A stretch of DNA of 64,000 nt from Escherichia coli (GTDB lineage Bacteria; Pseudomonadota; Gammaproteobacteria; Enterobacterales; Enterobacteriaceae): NCBI RefSeq assembly GCF_044647545.1, contig NZ_CP172818.1; one strand, 5' to 3'. A model generated the notes under the pieces. That model searched no databases, was not told the origin of the DNA, and saw nothing but the letters and a program-made list of their open reading frames with translations. This document shows positions 16,230 to 18,209 of this stretch, piece by piece; position 1 is the stretch's first letter; the number at the start of each line of letters is the position of its first letter. Made by a program: the position numbers and the translations under genes.

Positions 16230-18209
16230 TCAGTGAGATTTGACTGATTTTACCCCCAGCCAGTCAATAATCCCCTGTGCCGCATGACGTCCTTCTGCCA
16301 TTGCGGTAACCACCAGATCCGCACCACGCACGGCGTCACCACCGGCGAAGATTTTCGGATTGGTGGTCTGGTAACGGTACTGGCTTTCCACATCCGCGAT
16401 GATGCGGCCCCATTTGTCTACCGTTACACCGTGCGACTCCAGCCACGGCATCCCGTGTGGATTGAAGCCAAACGCCATAATCACCGCGTCGGCTGGCATG
16501 ACAAATTCACTGCCTTCCACCGGCACTGGACGCCGACGCCCCTGGGCATCCGGCTCGCCAAGACTCGTACGCAGGAAACGAATTCCGCAAACGTGACCTT
16601 GTTCATTCAGCTCAAGCGCCACCGGCTGGACGTTAAATTCGAAGTTGGCCCCCTCTTCGCGGGCGTTCTTCACCTCTTTCTTCGAGCCTGGCATGTTAGC
16701 TTCATCACGACGATAAGCGCAGGTGACGTTACTCGCGCCGTGGCGCAGCGCGGTACGCACACAGTCCATCGCGGTGTCGCCGCCGCCCAGTACCACGACG
16801 TTGAGTCCGGCGGTATTGATAAACGGCTCTTCCGGTAGCTCTTCGAGTCCCATCACCTGTTTAGTGTTGGCGATGAGGAACGGCAGGGCGTCATAAACGC
16901 CCGGCGCATCTTCATTGGGTAAACCCGCTTTCATGGAACGGTAAGTGCCTACGCCAACGAAGACCGCGTCGTATTGTTCCAAAAGCGAATCCAAAGAGAC
17001 ATCTTTACCCACTTCACAATTGAGTTCGAAGTGAATCCCCATCGCGCTGAAGATTTCCCGACGGCGTGCCAGCAGGGATTTATCCAGTTTGAAAGAAGGA
17101 ATGCCGAAAGTGAGCAAGCCACCGATTTCTGGATGGCGATCGTACACCGTCACCTCTACGCCATTGCGGGTCAGAACATCCGCACAGGCCAGCCCTGCCG
17201 GACCCGCACCGATAATCGCCACTCGCTTGTCCACTTTGGTGACATGACTTAAGTCAGAACGCCAACCTTTCGCCAACGCCTGATCTGAAATGTAGCGTTC
17301 AATGTTGCCGATAGTTACTGCGCCGTGCTCATCGCGAATAGTACAGGCACCTTCACACAAACGGTCTTGCGGGCAAACGCGTCCGGTAATTTCCGGCAGG
17401 GTGTTGGTCTGGTGAGAAAGCTCGACGGCGGCGTCGATGTTTCCGGCTTTCACCAGTTCAATCCACTGCGGTATATGGTTATGCAGCGGGCAGGTCCATT
17501 CACAAACGCTGTGCTCGCCGCACTTAAGGCAGCGCGAGGCTTCCCGTTGTGCCTGATCGGCACGGAATGGCAGATAAATTTCATCAAAACCGGTTTTGCG
17601 CGCTTCAATCGCCAGTTTGTCCGGCTCGCCACGCGCGGGCGTTGCCTGCATTTGCTCGACTTTACTCATTACCGGCATTTCTTGTGCCGCGGTACTGGCA
17701 TGCCACGGTTGATGTTCCTGACGTGCTGTGCGCAAGCGGCGGGATTTCGCTATGCCGGAGAGTGCGGCATCAGTGACCAGTTGCAGCGCGTCTGCCGGGC
17801 AATTCTCGACACAGGCAGGACCGTTTTCGCGCCCTGCACAAAGGTCGCATTTATGCGCCGTGGCTTTAACTTTGCCAGCCGCAACGGGTGTCAGGACGAT
17901 TTGCATCGTACCAAATGGACAGGCCACCACGCAGGATTTACAGCCAATACACTTTTGCTGATTGACCTGAATGCTGTCATCAACGTGGCTGATTGCGCCA
18001 TTAGGGCAGCTACGGGCGCAGGGCGCATCTTCACAATGGTGACAGGTCACTGCACTACGTTGCTGCTGATGTTTGATAACCGTAATTCGGGGATGAAAAT
18101 GGCGTTGGCTCAGGACATGTTGCTCGTCATTGTGAGCCATGACACAGGCGATTTCACAAGCATGACAACCCAGACATTGCTGACTGTTGGCCATAATAAA
18201 ACGATTCAT
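16230..18209 (-). CDS. aegA: AegA, fused multi-[4Fe-4S] ferredoxin / GltD-like NAD(P)H flavin oxidoreductase
   Basis: 659-aa ORF; several CxxCxxCxxxCP clusters plus dinucleotide-binding VAIIGAGPAGLA. Confidence 0.93.
   Translation of the reverse strand: MNRFIMANSQQCLGCHACEIACVMAHNDEQHVLSQRHFHPRITVIKHQQQRSAVTCHHCEDAPCARSCPNGAISHVDDSIQVNQQKCIGCKSCVVACPFGTMQIVLTPVAAGKVKATAHKCDLCAGRENGPACVENCPADALQLVTDAALSGIAKSRRLRTARQEHQPWHASTAAQEMPVMSKVEQMQATPARGEPDKLAIEARKTGFDEIYLPFRADQAQREASRCLKCGEHSVCEWTCPLHNHIPQWIELVKAGNIDAAVELSHQTNTLPEITGRVCPQDRLCEGACTIRDEHGAVTIGNIERYISDQALAKGWRSDLSHVTKVDKRVAIIGAGPAGLACADVLTRNGVEVTVYDRHPEIGGLLTFGIPSFKLDKSLLARRREIFSAMGIHFELNCEVGKDVSLDSLLEQYDAVFVGVGTYRSMKAGLPNEDAPGVYDALPFLIANTKQVMGLEELPEEPFINTAGLNVVVLGGGDTAMDCVRTALRHGASNVTCAYRRDEANMPGSKKEVKNAREEGANFEFNVQPVALELNEQGHVCGIRFLRTSLGEPDAQGRRRPVPVEGSEFVMPADAVIMAFGFNPHGMPWLESHGVTVDKWGRIIADVESQYRYQTTNPKIFAGGDAVRGADLVVTAMAEGRHAAQGIIDWLGVKSVKSH

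Follow-up and report, generated by a model that had tools for sequence, protein, structure and literature searches.

Identity of the gene

Anaerobic urate degradation is now of interest for hyperuricaemia and gout, and the direction in which AegA moves electrons, as well as the partners between which it does so, matters for the way in which Enterobacteria of the gut link this process to the oxidation of formate. The locus at 16230–18209 on the minus strand of the window, the whole stretch of 64,000 nucleotides of Escherichia coli DNA analysed here, raises the question of what kind of protein it encodes and which way electrons would pass through it. It is a single ORF with an ATG start, specifying 659 amino acids followed by a stop codon, and it is practically certain that this ORF is E. 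coli aegA and that it encodes a soluble iron-sulfur flavoprotein of 659 residues, composed of a HycB/HydN-type ferredoxin, a linker and a complete GltD-like module. The name AegA given in the original prediction is confirmed by a full-length match to the NCBIfam AegA equivalog NF009408 (1391.2 bits over residues 1–659 of 659, with a cut-off of 1003 bits), and the DNA is 100% identical to the annotated aegA of several complete E. coli genomes. The product name in RefSeq is 'formate-dependent uric acid utilization protein AegA'. The gene is found in 5425 of 5426 complete E. coli genomes, in 5424 of the 5426 as a copy spanning at least 80% of the query, and the alleles are mostly 95–99% identical in DNA. 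From about 8.7 kb to about 25.8 kb the window matches the RefSeq reference region base for base; aegA is an already known gene, and neither the allele nor its context departs from the reference.

An ORF of 302 aa on the plus strand (17325–18233), inside aegA, is rejected as a gene because it lies opposite the strongly supported aegA CDS, and is taken as a mechanical antisense ORF.

Genomic context and the intergenic region

With nudK on one side and narQ on the other, the gene has the position known from annotated E. coli genomes, and it is not part of the urate gene cluster. The adjacent narQ (18415–20115, plus strand, with a GTG start at 18415), encoding the nitrate/nitrite sensor kinase, was placed by mapping the RefSeq annotation to the window and from the ORF list; as originally predicted it is next to aegA, in divergent orientation and separated from it by a gap of 205 bp. 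Downstream on the same strand as aegA, and 67 bp past its stop codon, is nudK (15587–16162, minus strand, RefSeq annotation), and further out in the RefSeq reference region are ypfG, tktB (tkt), talA (tal) and maeB beyond nudK, and acrD past narQ. Descriptions of the gene, of its two-module architecture and of narQ as its neighbour go back to the 1990s (Cavicchioli et al. 1996, cited in PMC6004506).

The divergent aegA-narQ intergenic region (18210–18414, no strand, with coordinates from the ORF list and the RefSeq annotation) is presumed to hold promoters. It contains an FNR-like sequence, TTGATCTGCCACAG, with three mismatches at 18329–18342 on the minus strand, three being the number of mismatches in all FNR-like matches of the region, and one NarL heptamer, TACTTAT, at 18306–18312, also on the minus strand. 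Since the FNR and NarL matches are not above chance expectation, no regulatory claim is made from the sequence. The sigma-54 consensus has no match in the intergenic region and the sigma-70 consensus none in 18210–18414, and a search with the Rfam families gave no hit in 15400–18600 at E≤1. Anaerobic conditions reportedly induce aegA and nitrate represses it, through Fnr and NarXQL.

Cysteine motifs

AegA has 28 cysteines in total, and 23 of them are putative ligands, all within residues 12–289. Sixteen are found in residues 12–137, in the motifs CLGCHACEIAC (12–22), CHHCEDAPCARSCP (56–69), CIGCKSCVVACP (87–98) and CDLCAGRENGPACVENCP (121–138), and seven in residues 227–289, in CLKCGEHSVCEWTCP (227–241) and CPQDRLCEGAC (279–289). 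The other five are scattered over residues 316–659, at positions 342, 398, 483, 497 and 541, and in the cysteine map of the whole protein there is none in residues 542–659. The original prediction had placed cysteine clusters at both ends of the protein, which is not the case, as all ligand cysteines are in the N-terminal 45% and the C-terminal end is free of them. It had also described multiple clusters of the type CxxCxxCxxxCP; the ferredoxin-type motifs are real, but only residues 87–98 follow that pattern strictly. The other motifs read CxxCxxCxxxC-V (12–22), CxxCx4Cx3CP (56–69) and CxxCx8Cx3CP (121–138), and those of the GltD-like module CxxCx5Cx3CP (227–241) and Cx5Cx3C (279–289). The pattern CxxCx(2-8)CxxxC has five matches in AegA. 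When the AegA protein itself was shuffled 5000 times the mean was 0.014 and no shuffle (0/5000) reached five, and the ferredoxin-type motifs are far above chance.

Domain architecture

The fusion of a poly-ferredoxin with a GltD-like flavoprotein that had been proposed is upheld by Pfam, by NCBIfam and by matches to solved structures; the domain search named as its check gives Fer4 families, Fer4_20 and Pyr_redox_2 in Pfam, which is the architecture proposed. Residues 1–163 (17721–18209, minus strand) constitute a ferredoxin domain of the HycB/HydN type according to Pfam, the HydN model and the alignment to the HycB chain 7z0s_B. Several Pfam 4Fe-4S dicluster families overlap over residues 52–145, namely Fer4_11 (54–145), Fer4_9 (86–141) and Fer4_7 (55–100), and the 16 cysteines in four motifs are predicted to hold four [4Fe-4S] clusters. 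The HydN model NF007658 scores 174.5 bits over residues 1–163, below its equivalog cut-off of 260, indicating that the N-terminus of AegA is a paralogous domain and not HydN. It is followed by a linker of about 30–40 residues (residues 164–204; 17598–17720, minus strand) with no cysteine in its 41 residues. Residues from about 164 to 190 match no domain model in Pfam, NCBIfam or the solved structures, and the GltD-type alignments start at residues 187–205.

The next domain, residues 205–315 (17265–17597, minus strand), is the N-terminal Fe-S domain of the GltD/DPD type, Fer4_20 (PF14691, 'dihydropyrimidine dehydrogenase domain II, 4Fe-4S cluster'; E 9e-38, 129 bits with a cut-off of 25.8), in which Cys 227/230/236/240 together with Cys 279/285/289 are predicted to hold two [4Fe-4S] clusters. 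The region of two Rossmann folds for FAD and NAD(P)H, Pyr_redox_2 (PF07992; E 1e-24, 88 bits with a cut-off of 26.1), covers residues 329–640 (16290–17225, minus strand). Its FAD-binding dinucleotide fold VAIIGAGPAGLA (residues 330–341; 17187–17222, minus strand) is aligned to VGVIGAGPAGLA of GltD, including GAGPAG (GxGxxG) at residues 334–339. It is located at about the middle of the protein and corresponds to the central dinucleotide-binding fold that had been predicted. A second dinucleotide site, VVVLGGGDTAMDC...AYRRD (residues 471–502; 16704–16799, minus strand), is aligned to VVVLGGGDTAMDC...LYRRD of GltD, with GGGDTA at residues 475–480 and then YRRD (a GxGxxA...RR site), and by published work on GltD it is predicted to be the NADPH site.

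The order along the protein is N-terminal ferredoxin, GltD-type clusters, FAD site and NADPH site. These alignments show that a single polypeptide combines six putative motifs for cluster binding with an FAD fold and an NADPH-type fold, and each of the cofactor motifs aligns to structurally characterised relatives where those cofactors form an electron path.

The module from residue 187 onwards might also suggest that AegA is the small subunit of a true glutamate synthase to which a ferredoxin domain has been added. The best solved-structure matches are indeed GltD chains, and TIGR01318 (gltD_gamma_fam), a domain model of the 'glutamate synthase, small subunit' family, scores 875.3 bits over residues 187–653, above its cut-off of 482.95. 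The models for the enzyme proper are not reached, neither TIGR01317 for the GOGAT small subunit (338.3, cut-off 447.7) nor TIGR01316 for the NADPH-dependent glutamate synthase (387.5, cut-off 471.75), it is the AegA equivalog that is matched instead, and there is no gltB-like large-subunit gene among the neighbours of aegA. In addition, review PMC8097209 lists AegA as a separate GltD-like protein. Given the scores below cut-off, the absent gltB neighbour and the equivalog match, a role as glutamate synthase small subunit is effectively refuted and has next to no probability.

The paralogue YgfT

YgfT (UacF) of E. coli K-12 has the same architecture as AegA and is 55% identical to it over 656 aligned positions, with all 23 ligand cysteines and both nucleotide motifs kept. 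The two are told apart by the models, as AegA scores 872 bits with the YgfT equivalog, below the cut-off of 1154. Their surroundings also differ; ygfT adjoins uacT, which encodes the urate permease, and lies on the border of the xdhD-ygfM-ygfK-ssnA-ygeWXY-hyuA cluster, whereas aegA has no such metabolic neighbours. Directly downstream of ygfT is ygfS, encoding a free-standing ferredoxin with 45% identity to the N-terminal domain of AegA. A blastn search with aegA in 'distant' mode gave related sequence at a median of three places in each E. coli genome, probably aegA itself, ygfT and one further GltD-like gene. Phylogeny groups AegA, YgfS and YgfT with HydN, YsaA, HycB and HyfA as paralogues (PMC6004506).

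Proposed electron transfer through AegA

According to Iwadate & Kato 2019, cited in PMC8097209 and bioRxiv 10.1101/2022.07.24.501321, aegA and ygfT are required for a reductive degradation of urate that depends on formate and FDH-H. The original prediction called AegA under-characterised; this is out of date for its genetic role in urate degradation, published in 2019, but still applies to its enzymology. Deletion of aegA leaves both the dye-linked activity of FDH-H and H2 production unchanged, and in two-hybrid assays AegA binds strongly to itself and to HycB, HydN, YsaA and HyfA, but not convincingly to FdhF (PMC6004506). The induction of aegA by urate in rich medium is modest, in contrast to ygfT, with strong induction, and ygfK, and Liu et al. 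conclude that AegA is not the enzyme used under their conditions; they also summarise the proposal that AegA and YgfT carry electrons from formate dehydrogenase to NADP+ or urate (bioRxiv 10.1101/2022.07.24.501321). In the pathway described in a 2025 paper, XdhD reduces urate to 2,8-dioxopurine, which YgfK then dearomatises. There YgfK was assayed in vitro with NAD(P)H, and XdhD-YgfM was modelled as accepting electrons from NAD(P)H. The authors' conclusion is that XdhD and YgfK of E. coli both rely on NADH as reductant, and AegA is named only as a previously proposed, uncharacterised oxidoreductase.

We infer, with a confidence at or just short of even, that AegA is an electron wire made of one polypeptide, which connects a low-potential ferredoxin network fed by FDH-H to the pyridine-nucleotide pool and runs in the direction from formate to NAD(P)+. 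The HycB-like N-terminus would plug AegA into the ferredoxin network around FDH-H, and the GltD-like module would link this network to NAD(P)(H). Electrons from formate would reach the N-terminal clusters straight from FDH-H or, which is likelier, via HydN, YsaA or HycB, and then traverse the two GltD-type clusters to FAD, where NAD(P)+ could be reduced. The resulting NAD(P)H might feed the urate-reducing enzymes that depend on it, XdhD-YgfM and YgfK. Such a path would account for the dependence of anaerobic urate degradation on formate, on FDH-H and on either AegA or YgfT. This direction is favoured because the genetic phenotype depends on formate and FDH-H, because NAD(P)H is the reported reductant of the urate reductases further down the pathway, and because the transfer is thermodynamically downhill, electrons passing from formate/CO2 at about -430 mV to NADP+ at about -320 mV. 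Taken together as a joint explanation, the identity and architecture of aegA and the proposed path are somewhat more probable than even.

Counted in support of the proposed path are the equivalog match and the Pfam domain order, the HycB-like N-terminus, the module matching GltD, the ligand cysteines kept in YgfT, the position of ygfT beside uacT and the xdhD/ygfK cluster, and the two-hybrid binding of AegA to HycB, HydN, YsaA and HyfA (PMC6004506). Counted against it are the absence of a convincing interaction with FdhF and of an FDH-H phenotype (PMC6004506), the weak induction of aegA by urate (bioRxiv 10.1101/2022.07.24.501321), and the location of aegA outside the urate gene cluster.

The same cofactors could also be used in the opposite direction, as in GltD and DPD, with NAD(P)H reducing FAD and the electrons passing one at a time over the two GltD-type and the four N-terminal clusters to a low-potential partner reductase, for example XdhD or another molybdoenzyme. 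In GltD and DPD the GltD-like module does pass electrons from NAD(P)H to the clusters (PMC8097209), and the motif of the NADPH site is conserved in AegA. NAD(P)H-dependent reduction of an acceptor is furthermore one of the two options that review PMC8097209 names for AegA, the other being an Nfn-like bifurcation with ferredoxin reduced by FDH. However, reverse flow by itself leaves the requirement for formate and FDH-H unexplained, and a further feeder that depends on NAD(P)H would seem superfluous, because YgfK itself works with NAD(P)H in vitro and the model of XdhD-YgfM gives it an FAD site of its own at which NAD(P)H would be used. We consider reverse flow unlikely, and keep the direction from formate to NAD(P)+ as the preferred one.

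If the preferred direction is taken further, the HycB-like domain might recruit FDH-H, directly or via HydN/YsaA, so that together they would act as a soluble formate:NAD(P)+ oxidoreductase, which may work by flavin-based confurcation or bifurcation. This wider reading is distinctly improbable, but if true such an enzyme would be an unrecognised route from formate to NADPH in E. coli, powering reductive purine catabolism. Nothing in the aegA sequence goes past the existing speculation in reviews, and the sequence here adds no new handle on electron direction or partners.

Comparison with related systems

The closest structural relative of the flavoprotein part is GltD of A. brasilense (6s6s_G; PDB 6s6s/2vdc), to which residues 192–651 of AegA align end to end with an E-value of 6e-121, and all seven cluster cysteines, GAGPAG and GGGDTAMDC...YRRD are common to the two proteins. 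GltD has no N-terminal four-cluster ferredoxin domain, unlike AegA, and it works bound to the large subunit GltB, whereas no GltB partner is encoded near aegA and AegA is not known to be linked to an amidotransferase.

The module of Fer4_20 and Pyr_redox_2 is also common to Nfn, the NADH-dependent ferredoxin:NADP+ oxidoreductase (its NfnB/SudA large subunit), to the N-terminal half of DPD and to YgfK, and dihydropyrimidine dehydrogenase is among the solved-structure matches to this part of AegA. DPD and YgfK bear an extra catalytic domain of the FMN/dihydroorotate-dehydrogenase type, which AegA lacks. The large subunits of Nfn resemble AegA strongly, with E-values of 4e-94 for NfnI (5jca_L) and 3.5e-86 for NfnB of T. 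maritima (4ylf_B), and this similarity could point to flavin-based bifurcation or confurcation, explicitly raised in PMC8097209, in which the FAD of AegA would couple NADPH to a low-potential Fe-S branch leading to the ferredoxin/FDH-H network and to a putative high-potential partner. Nfn, however, requires a separate small subunit, and no gene for an NfnA-like protein with [2Fe-2S] and FAD is adjacent to aegA, the neighbours being nudK and narQ. AegA is moreover closer to GltD, which does not bifurcate, and we regard an Nfn-like mechanism as very improbable.

For the one-way path from formate to NAD(P)+ it is the N-terminal domain that would provide the connection to FDH-H. Its closest solved structure is HycB (7z0s_B), the ferredoxin on which FDH-H docks in the formate hydrogenlyase of E. 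coli. Residues 1–161 of AegA align to HycB with an E-value of 1e-35 and with all four cysteine motifs, and the same residues also match HycB3/HycB4 of the hydrogen-dependent CO2 reductase. HycB, HydN, YsaA and YgfS are free-standing proteins of 160–200 aa, whereas their counterpart in AegA is fused to a flavoprotein.

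Features flanking aegA

The 67-bp gap separating aegA from nudK, its downstream neighbour on the same strand, contains a strong, long-stemmed hairpin (16164–16211, minus strand), whose folding was compared with that of shuffled sequences. The 96-nt stretch that was folded has a minimum free energy of -34.3 kcal/mol (z = -4.5), and an equally good fold was found in none of 200 shuffles. No run of U residues follows the hairpin, which is therefore not a canonical terminator, and an Rfam scan of positions 15400–18600 gave no match to it at E≤1. The GGAG located directly 5' of the nudK ATG falls within the 3' arm, and the ribosomal binding site of nudK could thus be masked by the structure.

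In the intergenic region shared with the divergent sensor kinase gene narQ, a consensus scan gave an FNR-like half-site, TTGAT, and a NarL heptamer, TACTTAT (18306–18342), about 100–130 bp 5' of the aegA ATG. The FNR-like site has three mismatches across the full 14-mer, and the quality of both matches is too weak for a call. The start of narQ is the GTG at 18400 (plus strand) in the mechanical ORF list, giving 571 aa, and the GTG at 18415 (plus strand) in RefSeq, giving a protein of 566 aa that begins MIVKRPVS. The same list contains an ORF of 302 aa on the plus strand (17325–18233), opposite the 5' half of aegA, and two further antisense ORFs (16284–16838 and 16974–17252), but all three are mechanical ORFs that face a well-supported CDS and are not supported as genes.

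Distribution of aegA and comparison with FDAARGOS_497

A search of 5426 complete E. coli genomes left a single genome lacking an aegA match, and one copy of the gene is carried on a plasmid record. The reference genome FDAARGOS_497 has a perfect aegA match, and its colinearity with the window is lost to the left of about 8.7 kb (1 to about 8700). In the window, no ORF of at least 150 aa is listed in the roughly 1 kb preceding maeB (about 7800–8773). In FDAARGOS_497 two glycosyltransferase genes lie between eutS and maeB, and compared with that genome the eut ORFs of the window are displaced; this part of the window has the appearance of a strain-variable insertion site.
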